Assembly: GCF_003019035.1 (NCBI RefSeq)
Contig: NZ_CP027447.1
Direction: 5' to 3' (one strand)
DNA: 64,000 nt
From: Escherichia coli
GTDB lineage: Bacteria > Pseudomonadota > Gammaproteobacteria > Enterobacterales > Enterobacteriaceae
The translations under genes were made by a program, and so were the position numbers. Under the pieces are notes generated by a model, which saw nothing but the letters and a program-made list of their open reading frames with translations, ran no database searches and was not told the origin of the DNA. Below are positions 21,640-37,958 of this stretch, piece after piece. The number at the start of each line of letters is the position of its first letter. Position 1 is the first letter of the stretch.

Positions 21640-21724
21640 GCCGAAGTGGCGAAATCGGTAGACGCAGTTGATTCAAAATCAACCGTAGAAATACGTGCCG
21701 GTTCGAGTCCGGCCTTCGGCACCA
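21640..21724 (+). tRNA. leuX: tRNA-Leu (anticodon CAA), 85 nt with long variable arm and encoded CCA
   Basis: GCCGAAGTGGCGAAATCGGTAGACGCAGTTGATTCAAAATCAACCGTAGAAATACGTGCCGGTTCGAGTCCGGCCTTCGGCACCA: acceptor stem GCCGAAG/CTTCGGC, anticodon loop tTCAAaa, T-arm GGTTCGAGTCC. Confidence 0.95.
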
Positions 21725-21913: not shown

Positions 21914-23161
21914 ATGGCTCTCACGGATATCAAAGTTAGGACTACCAAGCCCTCTGACAAACCCTTCAAACTTACTGATGGGCAGGGTATGCACCTCCTG
22001 GTCAACCCCAATGGTTCAAAATACTGGCGACTCCAATACCGTTTCGATGGCAAACAAAAAGTTTTAGCATTGGGTGTTTATCCAATGGTCTCTCTTGGTG
22101 AAGCTCGCAGGAAACGAGATGAGGCCAAAAAGTTGGTATCTGATGGTATCGACCCTTCCGAGAAGAAAAAAGCAGACAAGATCGAGCAGAGCGAAGCCCT
22201 GACATTCGAAGCTGTTGCAAGGGACTGGCATACTGCCTGTAAAAGGAAATGGTCAGATTCCCATAGTGAAAGGGTTTTAAAGAGCCTTGAAGACAACCTT
22301 TTCTCTTCCATAGGACAGAGAAAAATAGCCGAGCTTAAAACTAAGGATCTTCTCGAACCAGTCAAAACTGTTGCGGCTTCTGGACGACTAGAAGTAGCTG
22401 CTCGTCTGCAACAACGAACCACAGCAATCATGCGATATGCCGTCCAGAATGGCTTAATTGACTACAATCCAGCACAAGATATGTCTGGGGCAATTACAGT
22501 TGCGAAACGAACCCACAGACCAGCCTTACCATTTGATAGGTTCTCAGAGCTTTTAGAGCGCATTGAAAGCTTTAAAGGTAGGAAACTTACTAAATTAGTT
22601 GTGAAGCTGACATTGCTCATTTTTATCCGTTCCAGTGAACTCCGATTCGCAAGATGGTCGGAGATCGACTTTGAAAATGCGATGTGGACTATCCCTGGAG
22701 AACGCGAGCCATTACCAGGAGTCAAACATTCCCATCGAGGCTCAAAAATGAAGACCCCACACCTCGTGCCGTTAAGTCGTCAGGCCTTAGAACTTCTAAA
22801 AGTCATCAGAGAAATCAGCGGTGAATGCGACCTTGTATTCATTGGCGATCATGATTTCAGAAAACCTATGAGCGAAAACACAGTCAACAAGGCACTAAGG
22901 TCAATGGGTTATGACACAACCGTTGAGGTATGTGGGCATGGTTTTAGAGCAATGGCTTGTAGTGCTTTGATCGAGTCAGGAAAGTGGTCGAGAGATGCTG
23001 TTGAACGGCAGATGAGCCATCAGGAGCGGAACTCCGTTCGTGCCGCATACATTCATAAAGCTGAGCATTTGGACGAGCGTAGGTTGATGTTGCAGTGGTG
23101 GGCTGATTATCTTGATGAAACAACTAAGAGAAGAATTGCACCTTTCGATTTTAATAACTAA
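21914..23161 (+). CDS. P4-family tyrosine integrase (tRNA-associated)
   Basis: 415-aa protein with N-terminal Arm-type domain (MALTDIKVRTTKPSDKPFKLTDGQGMHLLVNPNGSKYWRLQYRF) and C-terminal catalytic region (..HGFRAM.., ..RAAYIH..); sits next to the tRNA as expected for IntB-like integrases. Confidence 0.9.
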   Translation: MALTDIKVRTTKPSDKPFKLTDGQGMHLLVNPNGSKYWRLQYRFDGKQKVLALGVYPMVSLGEARRKRDEAKKLVSDGIDPSEKKKADKIEQSEALTFEAVARDWHTACKRKWSDSHSERVLKSLEDNLFSSIGQRKIAELKTKDLLEPVKTVAASGRLEVAARLQQRTTAIMRYAVQNGLIDYNPAQDMSGAITVAKRTHRPALPFDRFSELLERIESFKGRKLTKLVVKLTLLIFIRSSELRFARWSEIDFENAMWTIPGEREPLPGVKHSHRGSKMKTPHLVPLSRQALELLKVIREISGECDLVFIGDHDFRKPMSENTVNKALRSMGYDTTVEVCGHGFRAMACSALIESGKWSRDAVERQMSHQERNSVRAAYIHKAEHLDERRLMLQWWADYLDETTKRRIAPFDFNN

Positions 23162-23230: not shown

Positions 23231-24142
23231 GTGCTATTACGAAGTAAAGCTTTTTACAACGGAGTGGCATTAATGAAATCTTGGGTAAAAATGAATAGTT
23301 GGACATCAGAAGACACCAAAGCAGTGAAAACGTGGTTTGATTTGGACAAATATCGAGAGTTTGAAAACATTTCTATTAATATGCTTTACCATGAAATATG
23401 GGCGAGAACCTATTTTTTCAAACCAGTAATAGAAGAAGGAATGCAGAACACAGTATTGAAAAATTATATGCAGATATTGGATGGTGATCCTTTTCTTATC
23501 AAAGAGAAGCACTTAAATTATATGGATGCCGAAAATAAATTATATCAACCCCCATACTTTTTTATTACTACTGTTGATCGAATAGCAAATATCAGTTTTG
23601 ATTGTATGAGAAAGGCTTTATTCATTAGAGCAAATACAGAACAATATAAAATTGATTCCACTATTGAAAATGAATATATTTCCGAAAAAATTCCTGAACA
23701 GTTTCCTACTACGATTATGTTAGAAATCGATCTTGCGGGTGGAAGCGATGATGAGATAGCTGAGGCCCTGCGAGTATCATTACCACAATGGCGAAAAGTA
23801 AAAGGCGTTAAACCTGCACCACTTGATGCAGTCAGATTTGGTTATGGGGCAATAAAAAAATTAATTAGCTATCGAATTATTCCTATGCTTGATTTGCTCG
23901 CATGGTCAGAAAGAAAAAAAGTACTTCTGTCAGACGACAGATTATCTCGATTGCTATACACGGATGAAGATGATGATAAGGCGATTCGCCAAGGATATCA
24001 TATAAGAGATGCTGATCGGCCTTTCGCAATGAAAACTGTAGAAATTGATTTTTTAAGGCAATTTAACTTTTTTATCAATAAAAATCAGCATGTTAAAGAA
24101 ATGAGGGTTTCGGATGTTATGAAACTCTCAGATTCTGAGTGA
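23231..24142 (+). CDS. Hypothetical protein (303 aa), island cargo, no recognisable motif
   Basis: Long AT-rich ORF (GTG start in track; internal ATG candidates) between integrase and alpA. Confidence 0.5.
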   Translation: MLLRSKAFYNGVALMKSWVKMNSWTSEDTKAVKTWFDLDKYREFENISINMLYHEIWARTYFFKPVIEEGMQNTVLKNYMQILDGDPFLIKEKHLNYMDAENKLYQPPYFFITTVDRIANISFDCMRKALFIRANTEQYKIDSTIENEYISEKIPEQFPTTIMLEIDLAGGSDDEIAEALRVSLPQWRKVKGVKPAPLDAVRFGYGAIKKLISYRIIPMLDLLAWSERKKVLLSDDRLSRLLYTDEDDDKAIRQGYHIRDADRPFAMKTVEIDFLRQFNFFINKNQHVKEMRVSDVMKLSDSE

Positions 24143-24262
24143 TATGAATATCCAGAGACTCATAGTTTCGAGCCAAGGATGGCTCTGGTGTTCGTAATCT
24201 CGCTTCATCCATTCGAAATTCATTTGTACTGTAGCCCTGTAGACACAACAGAGGACATACAC

Positions 24263-24466
24263 ATGGAAAATCAAGCTCGTCTCATCCGTTTACCAGAAGT
24301 CATGAAGAAAACTGGATTTGGTAAAGCGTGGATCTATAGGCTTATCAGCAAGGGATGTTTTCCTCAACCAGTAAAAATTGGTCTTCGTGCAGTAGCTTTT
24401 GTAGAGAGCGAAGTAGATAATTGGATCCATGAAACGATTAGTTCTTCGAGAAATAAAGTTTCTTAG
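24263..24466 (+). CDS. alpA: AlpA-like phage/island transcriptional regulator (small HTH, 67 aa)
   Basis: MENQARLIRLPEVMKKTGFGKAWIYRLISKGCFPQPVKIGLRAVAFVESEVDNWI has the AlpA-family pattern (RLP.V...TG......Y......FP.P.K.G.R...W...E...W); the track ORF is extended upstream. Confidence 0.75.
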   Translation: MENQARLIRLPEVMKKTGFGKAWIYRLISKGCFPQPVKIGLRAVAFVESEVDNWIHETISSSRNKVS

Positions 24467-24913
24467 AAAATAAATAAAGAATATTAACACAAATTGTTAG
24501 ACTTTATGGTTGATGTTAATTAAGAGACGATTATGGTATATTAATATAATTTATGAGGTTGAATCCATTTTAAAAAATGGGGTAATAAAAAGGGGCTGTT
24601 TAGAAGCAATTACGCATTGTTATTCTAAATATGAACTAATTAATTATAAAATATCTTTTTTATTTTAAAATGATTATTGTGGTTCTTTCTTCAAATGTCA
24701 ATTTCCTTAACCTATTAAATTAGTGGATCACCGTAATGTATAAGAGTGAACCGTTTGTATTAGATTTTACTTATGAATATTTAGTCGTTTTCACTCAGGC
24801 ATCAAATTGTTGATGAATATATGTTGATTTTGATTCAAAACGAAATAGTCTATTTCTTATACATTTGATATAAAGGGTTATATTGGTATGCTGTACATCA
24901 GAAATGATATGCT

Positions 24914-25168
24914 TTATTTGTTTTTCGCTAATGCTACATATCGTCTATAATATGCAATTGCGCTATATTTTGTCGTATTCATTTTTTCAGCAACTTCTTT
25001 CCATTTTAAACCTGATGATCTTAGTTCAAAAGCAAGCTTTCTTTTTTCAGTTGCTACCCTTTCGTAATTCTCACGGCTAATGCCGTAATATTTTATCACT
25101 GTTGAACGAGATACACCTGCAGCCTTAGCTAAGTCTTTTGCTTTAATTAATTTCCCATGAATTATCAT
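24914..25168 (-). CDS. Small HTH DNA-binding protein (84 aa), co-transcribed downstream of the Rep-like gene
   Basis: HTH-like segment AKDLAKAAGVSRSTVIKYY; its start overlaps the stop of the upstream gene by 4 nt. Confidence 0.5.
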   Translation of the reverse strand: MIIHGKLIKAKDLAKAAGVSRSTVIKYYGISRENYERVATEKRKLAFELRSSGLKWKEVAEKMNTTKYSAIAYYRRYVALAKNK

Positions 25169-26013
25169 AATAATGCCTCCAATGCTATTTCTAATTTTTT
25201 TTGCGTTTTTCTTGTTTTTTTTGCTCTTATTGATTGTATTGTCGAAAATTTCTGAATTGAAAAATTACGCCATGTCCATTTACAAATACTGCTACAAATT
25301 TGTTTTGTCTCTTCATGAGATAATGGATTATGAGGGTTGCTATGATTATTAAGTAAAGTCGCTTTTGATAGCATATCATAAAAAAAACAACGATAGTTTT
25401 TACGTTTTTTAAAACTTAATACTTCTTTATAAGCAATAATTCTTAAATCTTCGAATAAGTTAACGTTGCGGCCCAACCCATGTATAACACTTTTCTTTTT
25501 ACTCGAAATTCTTATTTTGTCTGGGATAAAATCTAAGAGGTATTGTAGATCATATGCTGAAGTATTTGTCCATGTCGTTCTCCATTCATGAATGTTGAGA
25601 GGGTTTTTCATTAAAACATCAGCATAAGCTCTGTCTGCATCTAACCTTTCTGTAAATCCACTCTGAACAATAGCGGCCAATTTTAAAGGCTTATCTCTTG
25701 CCATGTCTGTTTTTAATACCGGATTTTTTAAAGCATAAAGTAAATGAGCATGGCCATTTTTTATGTTTTGTATGATCGTATTTGGTATTGGTAAACCAAC
25801 TAAGTCCCATGCGACCGCTCCATATTTGTGATCTATATCAAAAACCAAACCGTTAATAAAAGATTTGTTATTAAAACAAATATATTTCTTTAGAAGGGCT
25901 TTGTCTTTAGGGGCTCTGTATACCCCATCTCTAAAATCATCACAGCATAAAGCATATTTTTGAATTTGCAGCTTGTATTTTTCTACATTATATATATTTT
26001 CGTCATTTAACAT
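25165..26013 (-). CDS. Replication initiator-like protein (Replicase/primase-like N-terminal domain)
   Basis: 282-aa protein with FDIDHKYGAVAWDLVGLPIPN and NGHAHLLYAL (HxH) motifs reminiscent of plasmid/satellite Rep proteins; family assignment is by motif resemblance only. Confidence 0.5.
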   Translation of the reverse strand: MLNDENIYNVEKYKLQIQKYALCCDDFRDGVYRAPKDKALLKKYICFNNKSFINGLVFDIDHKYGAVAWDLVGLPIPNTIIQNIKNGHAHLLYALKNPVLKTDMARDKPLKLAAIVQSGFTERLDADRAYADVLMKNPLNIHEWRTTWTNTSAYDLQYLLDFIPDKIRISSKKKSVIHGLGRNVNLFEDLRIIAYKEVLSFKKRKNYRCFFYDMLSKATLLNNHSNPHNPLSHEETKQICSSICKWTWRNFSIQKFSTIQSIRAKKTRKTQKKLEIALEALL

Positions 26014-26561
26014 TTATAATCTCCTTATTGTATTCTCCATTTTATTGTATTTTTCTAAAAAGGAGATGCATATTATTTTTATAATTATTTAATAAGGGAT
26101 TTTAAAAGTTTGTCAAGTGTCTAAAAGCCATATCAGATATTAGGTGTTTCTTTTAGGGTTATAATAACAAGAGGGAGGTGCTTCAATGACAATATAAATG
26201 ATGATAGTTTTTTTTAAGTGCAGCTCATAAATCATTATGGCATATTGTAATATGATTACTTTTTATCTGATTAAAAGTAAATATCGATCGCAGATCTTTT
26301 AATTTAATTGTTAATTCAATAATCTGGTCTTGTCAAATTTTCATGGTTAAACTTCAACTTCCTTTATATACAAATCAGATATTTTAAATTTATAACAACA
26401 ATATTTGTAAGCCATAGGAGATATAGAATGTATAAGTTAATTTTTTTTCCAGTTAATACCTGTGATTGTTTTTATTTTGGCGATATAGTTCATTACTTGA
26501 CAATTTAAAAAAAGAATATATAAGTATTTAGATTGATATAGTTAAATTTAAGGATGGTACC

Positions 26562-26975
26562 ATGCAAAATACAAAGCTTAATATTATGGAGCGATATTTG
26601 ATACTGCTCGATAAGTTTGTCGATAAAATTATCGAATCAGGCGTTTCTGAACAACAATTGATCGAGAAGTCGTATCTGTTCTGTGCAGGGTATTATATTA
26701 AGTACCAGCAAGAAATTGAAAGGCTGACATTCTCAAATAAAGATGTCGTTTTAACATTTCTATTATTTTCATACTACAATTATATTAATGAGTTAGATAA
26801 TAATTTAATTAACAAAGTAAGGATGAGGAGAACATGTTCATTACTTATTAATTTCATTGTCGATAATGGTAGTCAGACAGAAAAAATTTATGTGCAGGAA
26901 AAAAAGAAGTACAAATCTTATACATTGAAAAGGGATTTATCAGTAAAGAATAAAAGGAAAAAATATGGTTTATAA
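26562..26975 (+). CDS. Hypothetical protein (137 aa)
   Basis: AT-rich ORF with plausible RBS (AAGGATGG) a few bases upstream; no recognisable motif. Confidence 0.4.
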   Translation: MQNTKLNIMERYLILLDKFVDKIIESGVSEQQLIEKSYLFCAGYYIKYQQEIERLTFSNKDVVLTFLLFSYYNYINELDNNLINKVRMRRTCSLLINFIVDNGSQTEKIYVQEKKKYKSYTLKRDLSVKNKRKKYGL

Positions 26976-27292
26976 CAATATGAAAACTTCCGTGATTTGA
27001 ATTTAAGGCTTTCACCTTATTATCCGATGCCTACATGAAAAATGCCAAAACTTACATAGCTTGCTCCAGCACAAGCAATGTAGAAATCAACTTTATCTCC
27101 TTTAAACATAATCGTGATTGTTTCGTTGCTTCCATGGAGTACCGATGGCAGGGATTTATATCGTTGTCTGGGACTGACCGTTATGCTTATTGTATAAACA
27201 TTTATCTTTGCTGCCAGAAGGGCTCAGACTGTAAGATTCGATAAGGATGCTAACATATTCTATTCGCGATTTTACCGTTCAAGATTTTAATT

Positions 27293-27964
27293 TTAAAATT
27301 GTATTGACTTAATAACGCTTCTGAGTGCGTTATCAAATCTTTGGCTTCTTCTCTTTATCCATTTAATGCAGGTAAAGCTTCCAAGTCGTGAGGCAAAATA
27401 GGTTAACCACATATATTTGTGTTCGTCAAAAACATATCCAGATTTAAACCCCCATGGCAATACAAAAAATGAAATAATCGCAATGCAACAAAGCAAGATA
27501 AATATGGTGGAAAAAAATTTAGGAACAGGCATCGCCCTATAATAAAATGCCATCGAAGCGTTAGGGAAAAGTACGGTGAGAAACGCAGGGATAATAATTG
27601 TCTTTCTATTTAAGTTGACTTCGTATTCACCCGTGGTTGTATTAACAATGAGAGCATCTTTGAAGGCACTAAATGAACCATTAACTCTATACTGGCGAAG
27701 CTCGTATTTACAAATTTTGTGAGATTTTATAAATGTGATACCAAAGGCTGGAATCTGTGTCTCATCCCCCGTATCGGTTTTAACCCAAACTTGGTCAGTA
27801 ATTGGGAGGGGACTGATGACAGTAGCAGAAAAGGTCTCAACGAACATGTAGGTTTCGCCGAACAACTCGAATTTAGGTGTTGTCATCTCAGCTTTCGTTT
27901 CCCGGCGACTTAACGGGTCAATGTTAACTTCTTTATTGCAGTGTTTCGTGATGGAGCTGCTCAT
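27293..27964 (-). CDS. Hypothetical protein with C-terminal transmembrane segments (223 aa)
   Basis: N-terminal soluble region followed by hydrophobic stretches (IIIPAFLTVLFPNASMAFYY, FSTIFILLCCIAIISFFVL). Confidence 0.45.
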   Translation of the reverse strand: MSSSITKHCNKEVNIDPLSRRETKAEMTTPKFELFGETYMFVETFSATVISPLPITDQVWVKTDTGDETQIPAFGITFIKSHKICKYELRQYRVNGSFSAFKDALIVNTTTGEYEVNLNRKTIIIPAFLTVLFPNASMAFYYRAMPVPKFFSTIFILLCCIAIISFFVLPWGFKSGYVFDEHKYMWLTYFASRLGSFTCIKWIKRRSQRFDNALRSVIKSIQF

Positions 27965-28249
27965 ACAAATTCCTATGTTTAAGATGAAATCAGATTCGAT
28001 GATGTATGAAATCGTTCAGTTCCAAAGATGGAATAATGTCTGCCATTTCCAGTACCGGTGCATTAATGAAAAGGATATAGACTAGTAAAATCATAATGTT
28101 AGCATTACAGTGTGAACTAACATTTTGACTAGGTTTACAGGAAACGCAAATCACTTGTACCGATCGATTAACAAATAATGATAGATTATAGCTATCAGTC
28201 TATCTTTATCGATCGGTATAAACGATCAATTTTAGGGGTATGTTGCTTA

Positions 28250-29518
28250 CTAAAATCTACATGTAAGGTGGTAATGTTGCCTTGGCGGCACTAAATTGCC
28301 GTCAAGTAAAGGCTCCACAAAAGTGTTTTTGGGATTGATGGGATGGATTTCTATCTTCATCGCTTCAGTGATGACTTGGTGCTTTGCGGGGCGTCTAAGA
28401 ATTGGGATTTTAAGTTGTCTCAGCAGACGATAAATCGTATCAAGGTAAGGGATGGTTTCCATCCATCTGAATGCTGAGACCTCGTAGCTTTGATTAGGCA
28501 TCTCTTTTACGGCTATAGTAGCTATCGCTTTCTTACTCCCTGCTAAAGCTTCCGAGGAACACTTCTCTTCTACATAAGCGACAGCACTTTCGTCTTTACC
28601 TGCATGCCTATCAATAATAAAAGCTTCGAAGGAGTTTTTAACGTTTTCCTTTAATATTTCGTTTGGATTCGCTTTAGTGATAGTTGCTTTTAGGTCAAAC
28701 AGAAAGCCGTTATCGCGTTCTGGTCTATAATCGAGTTTACCCTGCAAGGTCGACCATGAATAACACTTAGCTAATTGCGAAGCTTTGAAAGCAATCCCGG
28801 CGTATTCGAATGAGAAACCATTCATTTTACCTGTAGATGTGATATTGGGTAATGCATTAATATTTTGTTCAAAAAGCTGTTGGACAAACTCAGTGGTCGA
28901 TACTCTTTTAGAAACTAACGTCTCTAAAGCGTTCTGGATGATGGTTTTTGGGCATTGTTCACCTGTCCTTTTCTCTTGCATCGCTTCATTTCGTGTTTTT
29001 TTTCGTTTTAGTTTAGGGCAGGGCAATGCTAAAGAGGTTTTTGTTTTAGGGCCTTTGGTTCTTAGTAGCGAATAGTCGTGTTCAAGCTGTTGGATAATGC
29101 GTGTACTAATCAGGTTTTCATTTTTTCCGAGATAGAGTTTGCCTGTAATACGGTCTATGCGGCTGGCGATAATGTGGATGTGTTGACCGACCGCATCGTC
29201 ATGCAACACGTAGCATCTGAGATGCGTTTCCGAGAAGCCGATGCGCTTCATATAGTCATCAGCTATAGCGGACCACTGAGCATCGGTTAGCACTTCGTCC
29301 TTTGGTAAACGAAGCGAATTGTGCCAAACAGGTTTATCCACATCAGGGCGAAGCGTTTTTGTTAGATTGAATTCAGTGATCAGATCTTTCGCTGCACACC
29401 CATCCATATTTCCCCCGATCACGACAGGAGCTACCCTATGATGAGAATCTGGTTTTAACGTATAGAGGACGATCCCGATAAAATTCTTACCTCTGCGGAT
29501 CTTTTGCATTCCCTTCAT
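28250..29518 (-). CDS. Mobilization relaxase (MobA/MobL-type)
   Basis: Relaxase three-histidine motif HDDAVGQHIHIIASRID (HxDx4HxH); probable start MKGMQKIRRG at 29518 (track ORF extends to 29569); overlaps the upstream mobC. Confidence 0.75.
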   Translation of the reverse strand: MKGMQKIRRGKNFIGIVLYTLKPDSHHRVAPVVIGGNMDGCAAKDLITEFNLTKTLRPDVDKPVWHNSLRLPKDEVLTDAQWSAIADDYMKRIGFSETHLRCYVLHDDAVGQHIHIIASRIDRITGKLYLGKNENLISTRIIQQLEHDYSLLRTKGPKTKTSLALPCPKLKRKKTRNEAMQEKRTGEQCPKTIIQNALETLVSKRVSTTEFVQQLFEQNINALPNITSTGKMNGFSFEYAGIAFKASQLAKCYSWSTLQGKLDYRPERDNGFLFDLKATITKANPNEILKENVKNSFEAFIIDRHAGKDESAVAYVEEKCSSEALAGSKKAIATIAVKEMPNQSYEVSAFRWMETIPYLDTIYRLLRQLKIPILRRPAKHQVITEAMKIEIHPINPKNTFVEPLLDGNLVPPRQHYHLTCRF

Positions 29519-29924
29519 CGGAGTCTCCCCACAAGTCGGCGGTGATGAGATGTAAGCGAAGATCGGCAATTTGTCGCTTCACTGCAAATAGTTCCGTTTT
29601 TGTCAGGTGGCTTCCGGTACTTTTGTTATCAAGGTGGGCAACAATTTTATTTAGTTTCTGTGAAAGGTCAGCTAAAGATCTCCATGCTTTTATATTAATA
29701 GCTGGAACAACACCAGGAAGCGCATTAAGAAAAGATAAACGAAGCCATTCCCCTTTGCGATGCTGGCCACGTTTTTCATTTAGAAGCGTCAGCTCTTTAT
29801 CATTAAGCCTGACACTGACGCAATGATTACGAATTTGCTTGCGTGAAAGCTTCGTTTCGCAAGAGCTTCTACAGGAAGCTCGCGTATTTATAATAGTCTT
29901 ATTGAAATTATTATTACTGACCAT
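29487..29924 (-). CDS. MobC-like relaxosome accessory protein
   Basis: 145-aa basic protein with a MobC-like LSQKLNKIVAHLDNK motif (similar to the NLNQiARhlN signature), immediately upstream of and overlapping the relaxase gene. Confidence 0.6.
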   Translation of the reverse strand: MVSNNNFNKTIINTRASCRSSCETKLSRKQIRNHCVSVRLNDKELTLLNEKRGQHRKGEWLRLSFLNALPGVVPAINIKAWRSLADLSQKLNKIVAHLDNKSTGSHLTKTELFAVKRQIADLRLHLITADLWGDSDEGNAKDPQR

Positions 29925-30053
29925 ATTAACCTCTTTTTAAATATATAAATAAAAATATTATTTTATTTATATAATAAAATAGTCAGATGTCAATATACAT
30001 GTATTATATTGATTTTAACTTTTTTCAACTGAAAGGCGAAAAAACAAGGGGAA

Positions 30054-30085
30054 ACTCAATGAAGCAGCGTAGCGCTTCGTTGAGT
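30054..30085. promoter_or_regulatory. Candidate oriT inverted repeat upstream of mobC
   Basis: ACTCAATGAAGC...GCTTCGTTGAGT near-perfect inverted repeat (11/12 arms) in the AT-rich leader of the mobC-mobA operon. Confidence 0.4.
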
Positions 30086-30148
30086 TAGCCCTTGCTTTAA
30101 CAATATTGACCAAAATCTCTTTTTAATATAAAATGAATCCTAAGAGGG

Positions 30149-30724
30149 ATGGAGGTATACATGCTCAATGATAATAAAATTCGCACTGCATTAATAAATT
30201 TTTTACTGGCTAAAAAACCAGCGCCAGAAAGGATTATTGAAGAATTGCATATCGAGAACGGAAGAGCAATAGCTGATGTCGTAGCAGCATATAGTTATTT
30301 GCATTGCTACGAGATTAAAGGAGAGACTGATTCAATTGGAAGAATCCTTACTCAAGCTAATTATTATAATACTTCTTTCAACAAAATTACACTTGTAACT
30401 ACAAAAAATCATTTAACATGGGCATTAAAGCGTTCCCCATCCTTCTGGGGAATCATATTAGTAGAATTAAAAGATAATAACATTACTTTCAAATATATAA
30501 GGGGGGCTAAAGATAATATTTTCTTCAGAAAAGAAAATGCTTTCATGATGTTATGGAAGGACGAAATGTTGAAGGTAGCAAATGAAGCCTCTGTACCAGT
30601 TAAAAGATCACACACGAGGATGGAAATAGCCGAAATGCTTAGTAGTTCGCTTAAGAAAAGTGATGCTTTGCAAACTATACAAAGCATCATATCTAATCGA
30701 CTAAAATTAAGGGATGCAGTGTAA
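30149..30724 (+). CDS. Hypothetical protein with PD-(D/E)xK nuclease-like signature (191 aa)
   Basis: Motif ..ENGRAIADVVAAYSYLHCYEIKGE.. (hydrophobic-D ... E-I-K) matches the PD-(D/E)xK core pattern; convergent with and overlapping the 3' end of the three-gene operon. Confidence 0.5.
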   Translation: MEVYMLNDNKIRTALINFLLAKKPAPERIIEELHIENGRAIADVVAAYSYLHCYEIKGETDSIGRILTQANYYNTSFNKITLVTTKNHLTWALKRSPSFWGIILVELKDNNITFKYIRGAKDNIFFRKENAFMMLWKDEMLKVANEASVPVKRSHTRMEIAEMLSSSLKKSDALQTIQSIISNRLKLRDAV

Positions 30725-31822
30725 AACAAACTTAATATGTGAAGTCAGCATGGCTTTAATCCAGGATGAGGGATTACCTGCTTTATCTGGTTTTTTAGGC
30801 GAATAACTACTTCTATCATAAACATATTGTTCCCCATATGAGAATGTAGTTGCCCTGAAGAATTTTTGGTCATGGATTATTGTGGCAATATCATAATATT
30901 GACCATTTCCTCTCTCATCATTCTGGAAAGATCCACCTCTAACACAAAACATATTATTCTTATACGTATAAAATACTTTTGGTGCGGAAACTTTTCTAAA
31001 TAGCTTCGGATCTAAATCTATATCAGAATAATCAGGGCTAACAATTCCATAATCCCCGTATATAATATTACCAATTTTCTTTTCGTTAACTAATGTGTCC
31101 CAAATTTTCCACTCCGCTCTCGTGAACGATTTTCTTTGATAGGTTTCAAGTAATGAGGAAATATTAGCCGGTATCGAAGAGGCTGATATAATGCACTTAT
31201 CAAAGTGAAAGTCTTTATTTACATTTAGAATAAAGTATTCAGCCATGTCAGTTAGTCGCTTTATGTCAGTTGGCTGAATGTATCGTAGATCTATAATTAA
31301 GTGCAATTGTTCTACTTTCAGATTTCTAATGATTACCATCATCTTCAAGAGATGCATTTTTGTTATTTTATAGCTCTCAATATCTTCAGCAACTAACCTT
31401 ATGGCTAATTTCCCTCCGTTAATTGATAGGCTATCGTAAACACTTTTATTGTGTTTCTCTAATCGGTTGATACCGATCACAGGAATATATAAGTAATCAC
31501 GAAAAAGAGATAGTATATATTCGTATTGCTCCACTCCATCAATTAATATTTCATCATCCAGGTCATAATTATCTATGTAAAATTCCATGTTTTTAAATAA
31601 AGCTTTATTATCCAATCTCTTTTTGAAAGAATGAGCTTTATTCAATACATTTTCCATTGTTTGATTATTTGATTCTCTTGGTATATCGAAGAATGGAGTG
31701 ATTTGTGTGAAGATTGTAGCATCTTTTTTGTAAAGCTCTTCGAGGGCTTGAGTTTCGTTGCTTTTTGCTTTTAAAAATGGGATATATTTACTCATTGAAA
31801 CCAAGCTCCCTTCTGACATCAA
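30707..31822 (-). CDS. Hypothetical protein (371 aa), third gene of the ImmA-containing operon
   Basis: Long AT-rich ORF whose start overlaps the stop of the ImmA/IrrE gene; no recognisable catalytic motif. Confidence 0.6.
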   Translation of the reverse strand: MMSEGSLVSMSKYIPFLKAKSNETQALEELYKKDATIFTQITPFFDIPRESNNQTMENVLNKAHSFKKRLDNKALFKNMEFYIDNYDLDDEILIDGVEQYEYILSLFRDYLYIPVIGINRLEKHNKSVYDSLSINGGKLAIRLVAEDIESYKITKMHLLKMMVIIRNLKVEQLHLIIDLRYIQPTDIKRLTDMAEYFILNVNKDFHFDKCIISASSIPANISSLLETYQRKSFTRAEWKIWDTLVNEKKIGNIIYGDYGIVSPDYSDIDLDPKLFRKVSAPKVFYTYKNNMFCVRGGSFQNDERGNGQYYDIATIIHDQKFFRATTFSYGEQYVYDRSSYSPKKPDKAGNPSSWIKAMLTSHIKFVLHCIP

Positions 31823-32717
31823 TTGAATTAACTAAACTTGAGAAGATAACATAATTTTTGTGTTTATTTCTTACCGCACCAGCAGCGATTATTGGGTGTA
31901 TATTAAATCTTTCGCAGACAGATATTAGACTATCAGGTTCATTAAATGTCCGAAAGACAGCTCTATTTGCTTCTCTGGGTATCAGACTATCAGCTGCGGC
32001 TCTGTTAGCCTCAATCTCTACGTCTGTTTCTGTGTCAATGTCTAAATCATCGAGGATTGGCGTATCTAATTTATCATAGTGCAGAGCAATGTGGGATAAT
32101 TCATGCATTAATGTAAACCAAAAGTAATCATATCTCGAATATCTTAAACTTAGACCTATGACTGGTGTTTTATTTGGTAAACAAAAGGTACAGCCATCTA
32201 ACTTCATACCTTTGAATGATTTTTCAATTATTAGAATAATACCATATTCTTCTTTAAGGATTCTTGAAATATAATGAATAGATTGTACATCCCTGCTCAA
32301 ACTTGCAATTATTCCGAGGTTTTCAAAATCCAGATCTGTGAAGACCTTTGTATTTCCTTTTAAATAGGTGTTTAATGACTTTTTTTCTATTAATGATAAC
32401 CATAAATTTATGAGTTCAGAATTAGCATCATCTCTTTTTCTAAATAGTTTATTTTTGTTAAATGTTAAATTTTTTGCTACATCAAGTAGGAATTGATTTT
32501 CGTTTTCCATTTCTGGTTTACGGGAAATAATATCTTTTATTTTTTTGCTGTTTTTTATCTTTTGGAAATTTAGTAAAATTTCCAAATCAGACTCACTAAA
32601 CTGATTTGATACAAAGAAATCTTTCTCATGCGGCATTTGAAATTCCTCCGAGAGTTGATGCGACAACCTGTGATGCCTCATAAAATCGGAGATTTTCTTT
32701 TTCATGGTCGACGCCAA
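31788..32717 (-). CDS. ImmA/IrrE-family Zn-metallopeptidase (COG2856-type) with ~190-aa N-terminal extension
   Basis: HExxH motif WFTLMHELSHIALH followed by the third zinc-ligand region EIEANRAAADSLIP, characteristic of ImmA/IrrE peptidases. Confidence 0.8.
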   Translation of the reverse strand: MASTMKKKISDFMRHHRLSHQLSEEFQMPHEKDFFVSNQFSESDLEILLNFQKIKNSKKIKDIISRKPEMENENQFLLDVAKNLTFNKNKLFRKRDDANSELINLWLSLIEKKSLNTYLKGNTKVFTDLDFENLGIIASLSRDVQSIHYISRILKEEYGIILIIEKSFKGMKLDGCTFCLPNKTPVIGLSLRYSRYDYFWFTLMHELSHIALHYDKLDTPILDDLDIDTETDVEIEANRAAADSLIPREANRAVFRTFNEPDSLISVCERFNIHPIIAAGAVRNKHKNYVIFSSLVNSIDVRRELGFNE

Positions 32718-33273
32718 AATCAGTCATGCCAAGATGGTTATAGAAACCCTCTGCACTTGGGAGTGCATGTAGGCAAAAACCAGGTCTATACCCCCAGTTT
32801 GAACAGGCATAATTAATTGTATGTTGGATAAGCTCTTTGCCTACTCCACTATATTTAGGGGTAAAGTTAGGACGAGGACGATTCCAGTATGCTGTTGCAA
32901 TATAATCCACGTAGAAAATTTTATTATTATCAAATCGACTTTCTTTTGGATGGTAAAGAACACAAACACCTTGAACTGCGTCGTTTATTTGCAGAAAAAA
33001 CCACTGATAATCATCACCATTACATTGCAAAAGCTTGCGGCACCAGTCCCAATGCCAATCAGAAAGGCTGTTATCTGCCAGAATTTTCCTTGCTAACTCG
33101 TTATCAGTGGCCATACCGGGGTTAGCAGTAATTAGAGCTGACAATAAATCAGCACGATAGGCACCCCATTTGCTCTGCAAGTCAACCACTTTAGCATAGT
33201 CAATCCCTACGTGAATTTGGTAATCAACTGATTTTCCTGAACAATTTTCAACGACCATAAGCTCCCTTTCCAT
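32626..33273 (-). CDS. GNAT-fold acetyltransferase-like protein (215 aa), first gene of the operon
   Basis: GNAT-like motifs ..FYVDYIATAY..RP.....GVGKELIQ.. and ..SAEGFYNHLGMTDFG..; its stop overlaps the start region of the ImmA gene. Confidence 0.5.
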   Translation of the reverse strand: MERELMVVENCSGKSVDYQIHVGIDYAKVVDLQSKWGAYRADLLSALITANPGMATDNELARKILADNSLSDWHWDWCRKLLQCNGDDYQWFFLQINDAVQGVCVLYHPKESRFDNNKIFYVDYIATAYWNRPRPNFTPKYSGVGKELIQHTINYACSNWGYRPGFCLHALPSAEGFYNHLGMTDFGVDHEKENLRFYEASQVVASTLGGISNAA

Positions 33274-34203: not shown

Positions 34204-36252
34204 ATGTATGGAAAAATGGAAAAAGTTTATGATACCACTAGAATTAGTAATCTTGCTAACGACCCGAAACAGTTTTGTTCTTTTTTTTGTGAGTACATAA
34301 AAAGAGATGATATTAGTATAGATATCGCCTTGGATGTGCTGAGAATATCTTCCATCTATTATAATAGATTTTCAGTTCAGACTGAAGTTGAGTATAACAA
34401 TACATTCAAAAAATGTATTAATGAGCTAGTAAACTCATTTCCTGATAACATTGAACTAATCTCTGAGTTCGAGAGTCAATGTAAAATTATGCATGATATA
34501 AATAATTCTTTCTTTGCGGCTACAAAATGTGCTGGTATTTGGCGTAAAAATACAAAAAAATCACATGCATTAATACTTAATCTCATCATGTTTTGTGAGA
34601 TGTTTTTATCATTATTATCATCCTTGGTTGTGGTCAATGATCCTAAAAAAATGAAGAGGATTTTTCCATTGTTTATCGTTTCTGAAAATATTAATATTCA
34701 TGCTGAACCTGATATCGAATATTTTCGAGTTATCGATAGGGCATTTGATGAGGTAGCCAATTACACCGGAAGAATATTTTCTTATTTACGGACTCATGGG
34801 CCATTGAAACTAACTTCTTGTGTGAATAAACAAACCTTGCTTTCAATGGGAGGGTACCTTAATGAGTGGAATGTTTTTGACTCATTAAGCAGAGTAAGAG
34901 ACTTTTTCAGACTAAGTAGTGCAGTATTTACAAAATTGGATAATAACATTTACTCTCTTGAGGTTGATAGTTTTTGTTTATACCGAGATTATGAGATTGC
35001 AAGAAATAGACTAATGATGAGAGCGTCACATCTATATAGCGAAGTTCATGAATTTAGTAACAAACATTTTCATCTAAATAGTTGGGTAAAGGATCATATG
35101 CCATCTTACTTAAATTCTGATGGCGTTTTTAGCTCATTTCATCTAAGCGAGTTGGAAAATATGTCTCCTGATGACCTTCATGAAGAATATGGGAATATAT
35201 CATTATTTAATTGGGTGCACGCTTATCAATGTTTAGTCGAGTTATCTAAAGAAGAAATGAGCAAAAGATTTTCATCGACAAAACCTATACCCCTACAGTT
35301 GGATCGCTGGCTGATCATAAAAAGCCGTGAGAGTTGGTTATCATTCTTTCAACGTAAGGGGATTGCAGTAGATGCAGCAAAAAAACTGATAGATTATTTT
35401 ACCTTCAATTCAAAATCACATGATCTTAATGATTGCCCATTTATTCCCTGTATGGACGGTTTATGCTTAATGCCTGCATTAATAGCAAATAGCTCAGTGA
35501 CTCGCTCTCTAATGTCATTATTTGGTTCCAAAAAAATTTCTCAAGCAAGTAAAGGGCGATTTCATGAGCAACAATTTATAAAACAAGTTCGTGATGCGGG
35601 GATTAAAGCTTCTCCAATTGATGCTCATGCTAATTATCAGTGCGATTGCGTGATTCTCCTGGATGATTGTTTGATTTTTACAGAACTAAAATCAAATGGT
35701 CAACCAATATATTATGGTAAGTACTATCAGCAAGTGTGTAACATCGTTGGAGATAGCTCATTAATACATGATCATAATAATAAATTTATGCGTTCTTATT
35801 TTCAACAAATAAATCGAATTTCTGAACATTATCTTAATCATCTTAATGTGATCATTAAAGAATTCGAACTACCATCAACATGGCAACCCAAAGGTGTGTA
35901 TAAGCTTATTGTTACTACAACTATGCTCGGTGGGAAATATCATGTGGATGATACATATGTAGCGGACAAATATGCATTATCTAGTTTTTTTCAACGAATA
36001 CCTGGAGTGATATATCAAACAAATGAAAATGGAAAAATGGCGAAAAATATCATTGATGGGTTTGAGTGTTGCGAAGGGGAAATCACTATCGATAAGTTTA
36101 TAGATTATCTTTCCTCTTTGCCCAGTATTAATGCTGTACGTAAAAATATAAAAAAATTAACTTATAGTGTTCGATTTAATGAAAAATTAGTCCATCACCC
36201 TTATTATGATTCTTGGGCTTTTGGCCCATATATTCGTAAGGGAAATGATTAG
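34204..36252 (+). CDS. Large hypothetical protein (682 aa), AT-rich, possible C-terminal PD-(D/E)xK-like motif
   Basis: Uninterrupted 2 kb ORF with strong terminator downstream; C-terminal stretch CDCVILLDDCLIFTELKS has a D...E.K pattern; otherwise unrecognised. Confidence 0.6.
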   Translation: MYGKMEKVYDTTRISNLANDPKQFCSFFCEYIKRDDISIDIALDVLRISSIYYNRFSVQTEVEYNNTFKKCINELVNSFPDNIELISEFESQCKIMHDINNSFFAATKCAGIWRKNTKKSHALILNLIMFCEMFLSLLSSLVVVNDPKKMKRIFPLFIVSENINIHAEPDIEYFRVIDRAFDEVANYTGRIFSYLRTHGPLKLTSCVNKQTLLSMGGYLNEWNVFDSLSRVRDFFRLSSAVFTKLDNNIYSLEVDSFCLYRDYEIARNRLMMRASHLYSEVHEFSNKHFHLNSWVKDHMPSYLNSDGVFSSFHLSELENMSPDDLHEEYGNISLFNWVHAYQCLVELSKEEMSKRFSSTKPIPLQLDRWLIIKSRESWLSFFQRKGIAVDAAKKLIDYFTFNSKSHDLNDCPFIPCMDGLCLMPALIANSSVTRSLMSLFGSKKISQASKGRFHEQQFIKQVRDAGIKASPIDAHANYQCDCVILLDDCLIFTELKSNGQPIYYGKYYQQVCNIVGDSSLIHDHNNKFMRSYFQQINRISEHYLNHLNVIIKEFELPSTWQPKGVYKLIVTTTMLGGKYHVDDTYVADKYALSSFFQRIPGVIYQTNENGKMAKNIIDGFECCEGEITIDKFIDYLSSLPSINAVRKNIKKLTYSVRFNEKLVHHPYYDSWAFGPYIRKGND

Positions 36253-36874: not shown

Positions 36875-37747
36875 TCACCCCCTAAAAACCTCTTTCCGAT
36901 GCCACTCCACAAATCCCTCATAAGGGTAATTTTTACGTACCTGCGGCAACGCAATAGTTTTCCCGTCAAAATCCCAGAATAGTTTCTCAACGATCCCTCC
37001 GCCGTTTACCGCATCTGATACCAGTACCCGCATATTTTCATCCAGGCCAATCGATCCTTTATCAAAGGCTTTATGGTGTATTGCACAAAGCGCCAGACCA
37101 TTAGGAATTTCACAAGGACCGCCGTGCTGTTTCCATTTTATATGCGCCGCTTCCAGCGCGACGGTGGTGTCGTCGTGGCGCATATTAAAGCCACATATCG
37201 CGCACTGGTAGTTATAAGCGCGTAATACATTTTTGCGAAATAACGGGTCGCGCTGTTTACGGATTTGCTGGAGATCAAAACCCAGTTCGTCAGCAATTTC
37301 TTCCTGAATACTCTCGGTGAAGTGCGCTTCGAGTATCTGTTGCGCCAGAGTATTGATGAGTTTTTTATTGCCAGTTACCAGGGCGTAGTGCTGTTCATCG
37401 AAACCGCCTGCAACGTGGTATTCAGTCAGTTCCTTCACTGGTGGTTGTCGGCTGCTCCCTGCTGTTGAGCAAAGCCCGGCATTGTGTAATTGCCAGAATC
37501 CGTCGCCTTGTAATCGCCAGAACGGCATATCAGGTCGGTACTGTGAACGCTGTGGCCCAAAACGTTCCAGTAAATTGTGCAGAGGTTCGTAGATTTCCGA
37601 TCCATAATCGAAAAGGCGCGGATGCCCATTCAGGTATCCCGCTAATACGTATAGCAGTAACAATGGTTTATGCGGCGCGCGCTGTTCACCCTTGTGCCAG
37701 ATTTTTATATTGGCAATTGCCTGCTGTAGCGATTTACTGGAAGCCAT
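36875..37747 (-). CDS. HNH-motif endonuclease with N-terminal DNA-recognition domain (candidate modification-dependent restriction enzyme)
   Basis: C-terminal His-Me finger CAICGF...HIKWKQHGGPCEIPNGLALCAIHHKAFD; probable start MASSKS at 37747 (track ORF extends to 37804). Confidence 0.7.
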   Translation of the reverse strand: MASSKSLQQAIANIKIWHKGEQRAPHKPLLLLYVLAGYLNGHPRLFDYGSEIYEPLHNLLERFGPQRSQYRPDMPFWRLQGDGFWQLHNAGLCSTAGSSRQPPVKELTEYHVAGGFDEQHYALVTGNKKLINTLAQQILEAHFTESIQEEIADELGFDLQQIRKQRDPLFRKNVLRAYNYQCAICGFNMRHDDTTVALEAAHIKWKQHGGPCEIPNGLALCAIHHKAFDKGSIGLDENMRVLVSDAVNGGGIVEKLFWDFDGKTIALPQVRKNYPYEGFVEWHRKEVFRG

Positions 37748-37958
37748 TGATATCCCTGGCAGTGAAATAATTGCGATCATGCTCGCAAATTTTCTGCTGT
37801 TCAAGCCTGCAAGTGAAGATATATTACCTTGATCTCATTTGTTTTTTTGCTGCCTGTGTACCCTAATTGCCATGCGATGTTGCACCGACGCAAACCACCG
37901 TTTACGCCGGAGGAGTTAAAAGCGCTGATGGATGCAAATAAATCAAATTAATGAACGC

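Follow-up and report, generated by a model that had tools for sequence, protein, structure and literature searches.

A conserved gene pair, encoding a predicted inner-membrane protein and a small basic protein, in the mobilization block of an Enterobacterales family of integrative mobilizable elements

Our analysis of a 64-kb stretch of an Escherichia chromosome (the window) shows that two convergent genes, ORF137 and ORF223, are conserved backbone genes of an Enterobacterales family of integrative mobilizable elements (IMEs) and form one block with the mobilization genes. The block comprises an oriT-like site, the genes for a MobC/NikA-like protein and a relaxase, a 285-315-nt leader, ORF223, an optional gene for a BamE-type lipoprotein, and the convergent ORF137 (Table 1). 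The preliminary description of this DNA had put the pair between the Rep and Mob modules, and this placement holds: a Replicase/PriCT_1 protein is encoded on one side and a PF03432 relaxase on the other.

Table 1. Features of the island and its mobilization block (positions in the window)
Feature	Position	Strand	Description
tRNA-Leu(CAA)	21640-21724		
int	21914-23161		
Rep	25165..26013	-	Replicase/PriCT_1 protein
ORF137	26562..26975	+	137 aa, cytoplasmic, basic, pI 9.5; Lys/Arg-rich C-terminal tail; backbone gene
Lipoprotein remnant	27038..27124	-	BamE domain; C-terminal 29 codons, stop codons before; translation ...ETITIMFKGDKVDFYIACAGASYVSFGIF
ORF223	27293..27964	-	223 aa; hydrophilic N-terminal domain and C-terminal membrane helices
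Upstream ORF	27990..28046	-	18 codons, MADIIPSLELNDFIHHRI; ends 26 nt before the ORF223 start
Nested palindrome	28150..28226	-	inside the relaxase-ORF223 spacer
Relaxase	28250..29569	-	PF03432; MOBP-like by NCBIfam TraI_MobP_relax
MobC/NikA-like protein	29487..29924	-	145 aa, relaxosome accessory protein
oriT-like element	29990..30098	-	conserved, non-coding, upstream of MobC

The host of the pair is a ~16-kb element at tRNA-Leu (leuX), and the local DNA is 26-38% G+C. Its other ORFs are defence or unknown genes, followed by nanS/nanM/nanC/fimB. The island contains no T4SS genes, and no att direct repeat of at least 14 nt was found at its right end. Judged from its genes, which include a tRNA-site integrase, a relaxase and an oriT-like site but no T4SS, the island is classed as an IME.

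ORF137 and ORF223 are real genes under purifying selection, not chance frames. Both start with ATG, ORF137 with an AAGGA 8 nt upstream (ORF listing and sequence inspection) and ORF223 preceded by AGGAA, and their stop codons are 317 nt apart. In sufficiently diverged pairs, dN/dS (Nei-Gojobori) is 0.07-0.19 for ORF137 and 0.15-0.29 for ORF223. Homologues of both proteins, down to 23-45% identity, occur in many Enterobacterales, with the family also present in Klebsiella, Salmonella, Enterobacter, Citrobacter, Pectobacterium and Serratia, and consecutive locus tags for both protein families appear in at least seven further genomes. Among 5,426 complete E. coli genomes, DNA similarity finds ORF223 in 99 and ORF137 in 325. 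Neither was found in 72,556 plasmids (tblastn). A tblastn search of 50,697 phage records with ORF223 as the sole query gave no match, and a peptide-pattern scan of IMG/VR did not find ORF223 either. A scan of genome contigs returned only 5 loci, and we found no mention of the RefSeq accessions of the two proteins in the literature.

Gene order was judged in every related element with sufficient flanking DNA. The order MobC/NikA-like protein, relaxase, ORF223, lipoprotein where present, and oppositely oriented ORF137 is kept in the window, L001-L007, L010, L012 and L018; in L014, the relaxase C-terminus is visible upstream of ORF223, and ORF223 directly follows the relaxase in all informative loci. 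The distance between ORF137 and ORF223 varies from 67 nt to about 2 kb. Around this constant block, the integration/replication modules of the family are of at least four kinds: a P4-type int with DUF6387, AlpA and Rep; this set joined by two Tyr recombinases and by genes of 543 and 134 aa; a recombinase of 487 aa with Rep; and the L010 type. Defence cargo differs as well, with PD-Lambda-2 in the window, an ABC-three-component system in L002 and Mov34/ThiF in L018. Most relatives have no Rep at all; it is Rep that is the variable part, not ORF137/ORF223. Between L004 and the window, the pair and the Mob block share 69-72% DNA identity, compared with 94% for the int-AlpA block. Homology of ORF137 to other elements begins only 12-19 bp before its ATG and ends at its stop codon, and on the far side of MobC the homology boundary is sharp at 30098, where variable cargo starts.

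Since the pair stays constant and the int, Rep and defence modules do not, neither gene is cargo, the label under which the preliminary description had filed them: every related element examined whose contig reaches this position keeps the pair, whereas Rep, integrase type and defence genes are exchanged. We therefore regard it as very improbable that the two genes are accessory passengers lodged between modules, such as an effector, secreted or in the membrane, that has no part in the life cycle of the element. The pair does have no known function and sits in low-G+C DNA near defence cargo, as such passengers might, but cargo varies between related elements, the backbone homology runs on to its boundary beyond MobC, and a signal peptide is lacking. 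The earlier suggestion of an effector likewise finds no support: ORF223 has no signal peptide, most of it is predicted to be cytoplasmic, and toxin and effector families gave no match.

The relaxase probably starts at the ATG at 29518 (MKGMQKIRRG...), matching the RefSeq annotation of L001; its catalytic N-terminal part is 63-72% conserved, whereas its C-terminal 140 aa diverge fast (23-40%). The L010 homologue of the MobC-like protein has a weak match to PF21983 (NikA-like). Upstream of MobC, the oriT-like element consists of AGCAAGGGCTAAC, an inverted repeat GAAGCGCTACGCTGCTTC (30061-30078) and then GAGTTTCCCCTTGTTTTTTCGCC, and the IncQ2/MOBP plasmid pUL3AT shares the AGCAAGGnnTAAC motif with an inverted repeat in the region upstream of its mobC. 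We tentatively prefer this element as the putative oriT over the ORF223 leader because the candidate nick site TTCCTG|T of the leader is present in only half of the loci.

An intact lipoprotein gene follows ORF223 in six loci (L002, L003, L005, L006, L008 and L010), 12-35 nt downstream when present, and its product has a LAGC lipobox and matches Pfam BamE (1.8e-6). The gene was lost repeatedly (the window, L001, L004, L007, L012 and L018); the remnant in the window aligns with the 124-aa lipoprotein at 52% over 29 aa (tblastn, E 1.9e-4).

The two proteins themselves have the general architecture proposed in the preliminary description. ORF137 appears soluble, with no 19-residue window reaching a mean Kyte-Doolittle value of 1.5, and for ORF223 a soluble N-terminal domain followed by C-terminal membrane helices is indicated in agreement by hydropathy and by the AlphaFold model. 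Kyte-Doolittle analysis of ORF223 marks residues 122-141 (1.7) and 144-176 (up to 2.8) as hydrophobic and 185-203 as a weaker, amphipathic segment, with no hydrophobic stretch at the N-terminus that could be a signal peptide, and AlphaFold places helices at 149-174 and 183-222. In the combined model, a disordered stretch (1-27) leads into a seven-stranded OB-like beta-barrel (about 28-120, pLDDT 91.8), a hydrophobic linker (124-143), a membrane hairpin (149-174 and 183-203) and a basic amphipathic cytoplasmic tail (204-223). Of the 20 tail residues, 6 are K or R; the loop between TM1 and TM2 comprises 7 residues, one of them K. Hydropathy, charge and the AlphaFold model thus predict an N-in/C-in inner-membrane protein with its mass on the cytoplasmic face and very short periplasmic loops. 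Distant members (P0114-P0118, P0129, P0130 and P0133) all have an extra K/R-flanked pair of membrane helices at the N-terminus, so that the barrel would stay on the N-terminal, cytoplasmic side.

ORF223 founds a small family with no Pfam match. For both proteins, Pfam, NCBIfam, PHROGs and PADLOC returned nothing at E<=0.1 other than noise (Hyccin, Glyco_transf_64, TomB at E 0.03, choice_anch_I), and searches of the barrel and of ORF137 against PDB sequence profiles gave no match at E<=10. Among the distant members, a CptA_toxin match of P0129 (E 0.29) is noise, and the others have no family match. Structure comparison of the model found no close relative of the barrel. Among known systems, we place OB-fold small beta-barrels (SfsA N-domain, PmrD, HIN, RsgA, LysRS, PAN and S17) with the closest. 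An OB fold proper would have a closed core of five strands and match OB proteins significantly in structure. No homology to any housekeeping membrane protein, which would have spoken against the preliminary description, was found, although a very distant homologue, P0133 (E 3.5e-6), lies in a core-chromosome context.

The leader of ORF223 is strikingly conserved. The spacer between relaxase and ORF223 measures 285 nt in the window and holds a nested palindrome, built from a pair of 12-bp near-palindromes TAYCGATCGRTA with TGATAG-N7-CTATCA at the centre. Near-invariant AATCGATCGGTACAAGTGATTTGC and GTCAAAAT come next, and conservation extends to three GATC sites. This is the most conserved non-coding stretch, and the palindrome persists in loci whose ORF223 identity is as low as 23-25%. 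Within the window, the palindromic 12-mer is confined to this leader. Further downstream, 12 of the 13 loci with a readable spacer have an ATG-started ORF of 12-18 codons ending in [FL][ILY][HY](H)RI-stop. In L003 and L007 an indel of 3 nt leaves it in frame, and its substitutions show no bias to third codon positions, which indicates that the reading frame is conserved but not most of the peptide sequence. A longer spacer ORF of 54 aa (27990-28154) was rejected, as only its last 12-18 codons (from the ATG) are conserved, and a sigma-70-like site at 28212-28185 is not called a promoter because its -10 is not conserved in the other loci. A search of 25900-30300 against Rfam gave chance matches only. 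We infer that expression of ORF223 depends on a tightly controlled leader of its own, with operator-like palindromes, GATC sites and an upstream ORF, and not on plain read-through from the relaxase. Instead of a promoter/operator, the conserved leader could be a cis site for DNA processing, for example a priming site or a second oriT.

ORF223 is also the fastest-diverging protein of the block, with at least three allele classes that are 21-27% identical to one another, compared with about 50-70% for the neighbouring relaxases. Between L012 and L004, identity is 71% for MobC, 69% for the relaxase and 60% for ORF137, but 21% for ORF223, which is not the pattern of co-evolution with a cognate relaxase. 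Close co-variation of ORF223 with ORF137 is not seen either. In L003 the relaxase has decayed while ORF223 and ORF137 are intact, and decayed copies in O157:H7 have ORF137 but no ORF223.

Our leading guess, which we hold tentatively, is that ORF223 is an entry-exclusion or immunity-type inner-membrane factor; an entry-exclusion-type function, already raised in the preliminary description, is plausible. In an island-carrying cell, ORF223 would sit in the inner membrane and act from the cytoplasmic face against productive entry or establishment of incoming conjugative DNA, following the logic known from TraS and Eex. In elements that have it, the lipoprotein would serve as an independent partner in the envelope, of the TraT or Sfx type, and ORF137 would be a small basic cytoplasmic partner that might regulate the leader or bind the barrel. 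None of these steps is backed by homology: family-profile, PDB-sequence and structure searches showed no similarity of ORF223 to exclusion proteins such as TraS, Eex, TrbK, TraT and ExcA. The traits that speak for exclusion are a small protein with a predicted inner-membrane location encoded inside the transfer block, a lipoprotein gene often adjacent, a sequence that is the most divergent in the block and decoupled from the relaxase, a conserved leader of its own, and an intact state beside the decayed relaxase of L003. The majority of the exclusion factors described reside in the cytoplasmic membrane, and the determinants of TraS and Eex lie on the cytoplasmic side; such factors are known for ColE1, and Sfx shows that IMEs are able to encode one (PMC11493245).

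Against this reading, the exclusion factors described so far act on a component of a T4SS whose gene, as a rule, lies beside their own (PMC11493245). An island that lacks a T4SS would need a target supplied by its helper, and keeping the helper out would impede the spread of the island itself. The repeated loss of the lipoprotein also counts against exclusion, and fast divergence could simply reflect weak constraint.

The main rival reading makes ORF223 a relaxosome-to-membrane adaptor like R1162/RSF1010 MobB, with ORF137 as a relaxosome accessory like RP4 TraK; we consider this unlikely. The cytoplasmic barrel would anchor the relaxase-DNA complex at the inner membrane and present it to the coupling protein of the helper. 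MobB is membrane-associated, and R1162/RSF1010 MobB, RP4 TraK/TraH and IncQ2 MobD/MobE are, like ORF223, small proteins encoded with the relaxase of a mobilizable element; an adaptor would share with MobB-type proteins an action at the relaxosome-membrane step. However, the divergence of ORF223 is decoupled from both relaxase domains, and its elaborately conserved separate leader and the convergent ORF137 are unexpected for a simple operon partner. Both ORFs survive where the relaxase is degraded, and in L011 a distant homologue lies in the core chromosome with no relaxase nearby. Neither protein matches a Mob accessory family, and the MobC/NikA-like protein is a separate one.

The leader and the basic ORF137 could also be read as parts of a maintenance or regulatory pair, in which a potentially toxic ORF223 is held in check by ORF137 and the leader (addiction), or ORF223 is a tether that sequesters ORF137; this we find doubtful. 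In the tether version, ORF137 would be released on an envelope or helper-derived signal and would control excision or transfer. Joint inheritance of the two genes fits such a pair, as do the seemingly tight control of ORF223, with a palindromic 12-mer confined to the leader within the window, and the Lys/Arg tail of ORF137, which is compatible with nucleic-acid binding; for related IMEs, the way in which the helper is sensed is unknown (bioRxiv 10.64898/2026.01.12.698999). Type II toxin-antitoxin pairs, though, are co-directional and usually an overlapping two-gene operon, for which convergent genes are atypical. Moreover, toxin-antitoxin, anti-sigma and regulator families gave no match, ORF137 outlives ORF223 in O157:H7, and the two do not closely co-vary.

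Finally, ORF223 might be a new kind of membrane-tethered cytoplasmic receptor that captures incoming relaxase-ssDNA or holds ORF137 at the membrane, a proposal we rate as improbable. In the first version, the OB-like barrel would bind the relaxase-ssDNA of its own family, and exclusion would be specific to the transferred DNA, contrary to the published view. In the second, ORF137 would be freed when the helper mating apparatus assembles, making ORF223 a direct membrane sensor for the helper. In either version, expression would be limited by the upstream ORF and the palindromic, GATC-rich leader to a period after DNA entry or replication.

Taken together, these observations describe an IME family with a four-protein mobilization core, two members of which are uncharacterised, namely the small basic ORF137 and the membrane protein ORF223 with its new barrel domain. 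IMEs carry much of the anti-phage defence repertoire in E. coli and its relatives, and to our knowledge their communication with helper plasmids and their avoidance of re-acquisition are largely unknown. An exclusion or immunity role, if true, would make the island a rare example of a helper-dependent element that controls DNA entry, and an adaptor role, if true, would explain the access of this relaxase family to foreign coupling proteins. In annotation, both genes should be listed among the backbone markers of IMEs and not under cargo or candidate defence genes.

Comparison with known systems sets out what is shared and what differs. Like F TraS, SXT/R391 Eex and IncI ExcA, ORF223 is a small, transfer-region-encoded protein of the inner membrane with its functional mass in the cytoplasm, as far as predicted, and it shares with them a highly variable sequence in allele classes. 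The gene next to it can be likened to the lipoprotein companions of exclusion systems (F TraT, IncP TrbK and IncC/IME Sfx). Unlike those systems, the island has no neighbouring T4SS target gene (VirB6/TraG, TraY or TraN), and a 100-residue OB-like barrel is no described feature of TraS, Eex or ExcA-type proteins. From MobB-type proteins, ORF223 differs in its lack of homology, its own leader, its evolution independent of the relaxase and its absence, like that of ORF137, from the 72,556 plasmids searched. The Pseudomonadota IMEs called PIMEs are defined by int, alpA, a replicase, trbJ and trbL, and the ORF137/ORF223 pair is not described in the paper on them (bioRxiv 10.64898/2026.01.12.698999). 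The island has int, an AlpA-like gene and Rep but falls outside that definition, with no Pfam match to TrbJ or TrbL among the scanned ORFs of 21.7-37.9 kb, and most of its relatives, unlike PIMEs, are Rep-less. With PIMEs it nevertheless shares a chromosomal location, an integrase, AlpA, a replicase, relaxase/TraJ-type mobilization genes, a large defence cargo and dependence on a helper plasmid.

ORF137 and ORF223 have exactly the coordinates, lengths, strands and convergent layout of the preliminary description in our ORF listing, and the protein properties it assigned to them hold as well. The ORF137 product is soluble and non-membrane, a hydrophilic, basic protein (pI 9.5) whose tail is rich in Lys/Arg. 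ORF223 combines a hydrophilic N-terminus, in which hydropathy reveals no signal peptide, with C-terminal hydrophobic segments (residues 122-141 and 144-176) and an amphipathic segment (185-203). Shine-Dalgarno-like sequences precede both, and dN/dS values of 0.07-0.29 show purifying selection. At 90% identity, homologues form 93 clusters for ORF223 and, for ORF137, 20 clusters with a single-sequence query or 373 with a profile, all from Enterobacterales and all annotated ‘hypothetical’. The two are genuine genes. Neither family has a Pfam or NCBIfam model, no literature was found under the RefSeq accessions of the proteins, and no ORF137 relative with known function was detectable.

Both genes lie on an island of ~16 kb that adjoins tRNA-Leu(CAA) (21640-21724) of the Escherichia chromosome. 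To its left, idnD, idnK, ahr and leuX match E. coli at 98% identity; to its right, nanS, nanM, nanC, fimB and fimE resume after ~37.9 kb. From 23 to 37 kb the G+C content is as low as 26-41%. Because the island has no type IV secretion system (T4SS) genes, it is classed as an integrative mobilizable element (IME).

Features of the island in the window
Feature	Position	Strand	Remark
P4-type integrase	21914-23161	+	
DUF6387 protein	23231-24142	+	
AlpA-like HTH protein	24179-24466	+	
84-aa HTH protein (HTH84)	24914-25168	-	
Replicase/PriCT_1 Rep	25165-26013	-	
Rep/ORF137 spacer	26013-26561		549 nt, 26% G+C
ORF137	26562-26975	+	
Lipoprotein pseudogene remnant	27038-27124	-	last 29 codons, behind stop codons
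ORF223	27293-27964	-	
uORF in ORF223 leader	27990-28046	-	18 codons, MADIIPSLELNDFIHHRI
PF03432 relaxase	28250-29569	-	
145-aa MobC/NikA-like protein	29487-29924	-	
oriT-like conserved non-coding element	~29990-30098		upstream of MobC
sce7726/cll-like gene	30149-30724	+	defence cargo
PD-Lambda-2 C beta protein	30707-31822	-	defence cargo
PD-Lambda-2 B ImmA/IrrE peptidase	31788-32717	-	defence cargo
GNAT protein	32626-33273	-	component A position of PD-Lambda-2; no PADLOC match
682-aa ORF	34204-36252	+	no Pfam match
HNH_2 endonuclease	36875-37804	-	

The relaxase ORF as tabulated has a mechanical TTG start at 29569, which probably lies too far upstream: in the related locus L001 the RefSeq homologue begins at an ATG equivalent to 29518 (MKGMQKIRRG...), and from there the gene overlaps that of the MobC-like protein by 32 nt. 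The 682-aa ORF and the HNH_2 gene, between the PD-Lambda-2 genes and chromosomal nanS, may extend the defence cargo or form a second islet; in L001 the GNAT gene is instead followed by a second integrase.

The preliminary description had called ORF137 and ORF223 cargo, and this label fails. We compared the island proteins with seven loci (E. coli O157:H7/O55:H7, Pectobacterium, Enterobacter, Pantoea, Klebsiella and a gut Enterobacteriaceae genome), adding further loci through distant homologues. All loci with sufficient flanking DNA (the window, L001-L007, L010, L012 and L018) keep the order MobC-like, relaxase, ORF223, then convergent ORF137, and in L014 a relaxase C-terminus lies upstream of ORF223. 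In comparison with L004, identity reaches 94% in the int-DUF6387-AlpA block, no homology is seen over 24430-26542, and the values are 69% for ORF137 (26543-26971) and 69-72% for the stretch from ORF223 to oriT (27312-30098). Because their identity to L004 matches the Mob block and not the int block, the two genes share the history of the Mob block. They are IME backbone genes, and we regard true cargo as very improbable.

The two genes were found in none of 72,556 plasmids, and ORF223 in none of 50,697 phage records and the IMG/VR contigs. Among 5,426 complete E. coli genomes, ORF223 DNA occurs in 99 and ORF137 DNA in 325, always on the chromosome. The one ORF137-only genome inspected, E. coli O157:H7 PA20, carries a decayed island copy that has lost ORF223, the relaxase and MobC to an IS30 fragment and a prophage. 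Still present are ORF137, DUF6387, HTH, two recombinases, genes for 543 and 132 aa, the lipoprotein gene described below and a 424-aa Pro/Glu-repeat protein. Decayed copies of this island family occur in PA20 and probably in other O157:H7/O121 genomes. Many of the surplus ORF137 genomes among the matches listed are O157:H7, and therefore the PA20 deletion probably accounts for them.

The HTH84-Rep segment is an exchangeable module (24430-26542 against L004, L002, L010 and L018). Of the relatives, L001 and L018 alone have Rep; the others show in its position two tyrosine recombinases together with a 543-aa and a 134-aa gene, a set that resembles the published ‘GInt’ four-gene operon. In L018 the integrase differs and sits at mutS, and Rep, HTH84 and ORF137 are co-directional there, with Rep-HTH84 reading toward ORF137; this pair is inverted in the window. 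The Rep/ORF137 spacer has no homology to other elements and may contain an oriV and promoters; a repeat search found no iterons in it. A TTGACA-16 nt-TATAAG site at ~26498-26525 could drive ORF137. Homology of ORF137 to other elements begins at its ribosome-binding site, so the gene has been retained as a discrete unit while all upstream DNA was swapped. ORF137 may regulate the ORF223 unit, act as its partner, or serve as a relaxosome accessory. That the two genes form a maintenance or regulatory pair we consider improbable.

ORF223 once had a further neighbor. In six loci a 124-aa lipoprotein gene (lipobox LAGC; Pfam BamE match, 1.8e-6) follows 12-35 nt after ORF223, and it stays 73-76% identical at loci whose ORF223 reaches no more than 23-45%. 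Judging from the pseudogene remnant, the window has lost this third gene of the ORF223 module. In L004 and L007 a 67-nt gap with a hairpin stands where the gene would be.

Two non-coding elements mark the mobilization block. The one upstream of MobC resembles a MOBP/MOBQ oriT in position and layout: it contains AGCAAGGGCTAAC, an inverted repeat (30061-30078) and then GAGTTTCCCCTTGTTTTTTCGCC. Its AGCAAGGnnTAAC, with an inverted repeat, also occurs ahead of mobC in the IncQ2/MOBP plasmid pUL3AT, whereas L018 lacks the motif in the 260 nt that precede MobC. At 30098 the backbone homology breaks off abruptly. Within the fast-diverging C-terminal part of the relaxase, DNA conservation peaks locally (0.86 mean pairwise identity) at codons ~372-399 (28372-28452), which may mark a translocation signal or a cis element embedded in the gene.

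The second element is the leader of ORF223, a relaxase-ORF223 spacer of 285-315 nt (window 27965-28249, core 28150-28226) that equals or exceeds the genes on either side in conservation and is the best-conserved part of the block. It is recognizable in all 13 readable loci (the window, L001-L008, L010, L012, L014 and L018), even where ORF223 is 23-25% identical. Two 12-bp near-palindromes, TAYCGATCGRTA (28158-28169 and 28207-28218), occur nowhere else in the 64 kb; the center reads TGATAG-N7-CTATCA, AATCGATCGGTACAAGTGATTTGC and GTCAAAAT are near-invariant, and three GATC (Dam) sites are conserved. In 12 of the 13 loci the leader contains an ATG-started uORF of 12-18 codons; its end, [FL][ILY][HY](H)RI-stop, lies 26-36 nt ahead of ORF223. 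An in-frame 3-nt indel is kept in L003 and L007, substitutions show no excess at third codon positions, and by codon-position pattern most of the peptide shows no selection; conservation concerns the reading frame and the last codons, as is the case for regulatory leader peptides, and the uORF may encode such a peptide. No Rfam family matches the leader. We infer that ORF223 is expressed from a unit of its own under tight control, although the leader could be a cis-acting DNA-processing site, such as a second oriT or a priming site, rather than an operator/promoter.

Profile searching against 1.84 billion representative proteins yielded only 27 matches, so the ORF223 family is small. AlphaFold models the full-length protein with mediocre confidence (pLDDT 69; helices 149-174 and 183-222), whereas residues 26-124 alone, with 22 diverse sequences, give a confident seven-stranded fold (pLDDT 91.8, pTM 0.80). 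Distant full-length members (235-283 aa) all have an extra N-terminal membrane-helix pair flanked by Lys/Arg. This hairpin, which keeps the barrel on the N-terminal side, the missing signal peptide, the 7-residue loop between the first two hydrophobic segments and the strongly positive tail favor an N-in/C-in topology of a predicted inner-membrane protein with a cytoplasmic barrel. P0133, a 283-aa protein whose barrel contains a Ser/Thr/Gly-rich insertion, is the most distant homologue (E 3.5e-6). It is encoded in core chromosome between mutY/yggX/mltC and trmB-yggL (L011 7668-8519, JGI metagenome 3300005318), with no relaxase or other mobile-element genes nearby.

A membrane adaptor for the relaxosome, with a parallel in R1162 MobB (Parker and Meyer 2007, cited in PMC3297438), is the main rival explanation for ORF223, and is supported by its invariant position and the predicted OB-like, cytoplasmic barrel. 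Its divergence, however, is decoupled from that of the relaxase. Relative to the window, the catalytic part of the relaxase is 63-72% identical and its C-terminal 140 aa 23-40%, while ORF223 is 55-70% identical in the near group and 19-34% in L012 and L010. Between L012 and L004, MobC is 71%, the relaxase 69%, ORF137 60% and ORF223 only 21% identical; ORF223 thus exists in at least three allele classes at 21-27% identity and diverges independently of the relaxase. In L003, where the relaxase is a fragment, ORF223 and ORF137 are intact and constrained. Given this decoupling and the separate leader, we find an adaptor rather unlikely.

Our leading model, held tentatively, is that ORF223 is an entry-exclusion or immunity-type factor. 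It is a predicted small inner-membrane protein of the transfer block and the most variable protein there, with discrete allele classes, its own leader and often an adjacent lipoprotein gene, traits that are hallmarks of TraS/TraT-like pairs. Exclusion factors are mostly cytoplasmic-membrane proteins, TraS and Eex determinants are cytoplasmic, ColE1 has exclusion, and IMEs are among the elements that encode the exclusion lipoprotein Sfx (PMC11493245). Against this model, no homology of ORF223 to exclusion proteins was found, the island has no T4SS target adjoining ORF223, and exclusion of the helper itself would be an evolutionary cost for the island. The remaining probability falls to something other than the explanations named here.

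The island resembles PIMEs in its int, AlpA, Rep and defence cargo, but lacks trbJ and trbL, the genes that define them. It is therefore an IME in the general sense, and its new part is an uncharacterised extra membrane unit in the mobilization module. Such a module is well defined and widespread, and will not surprise specialists.
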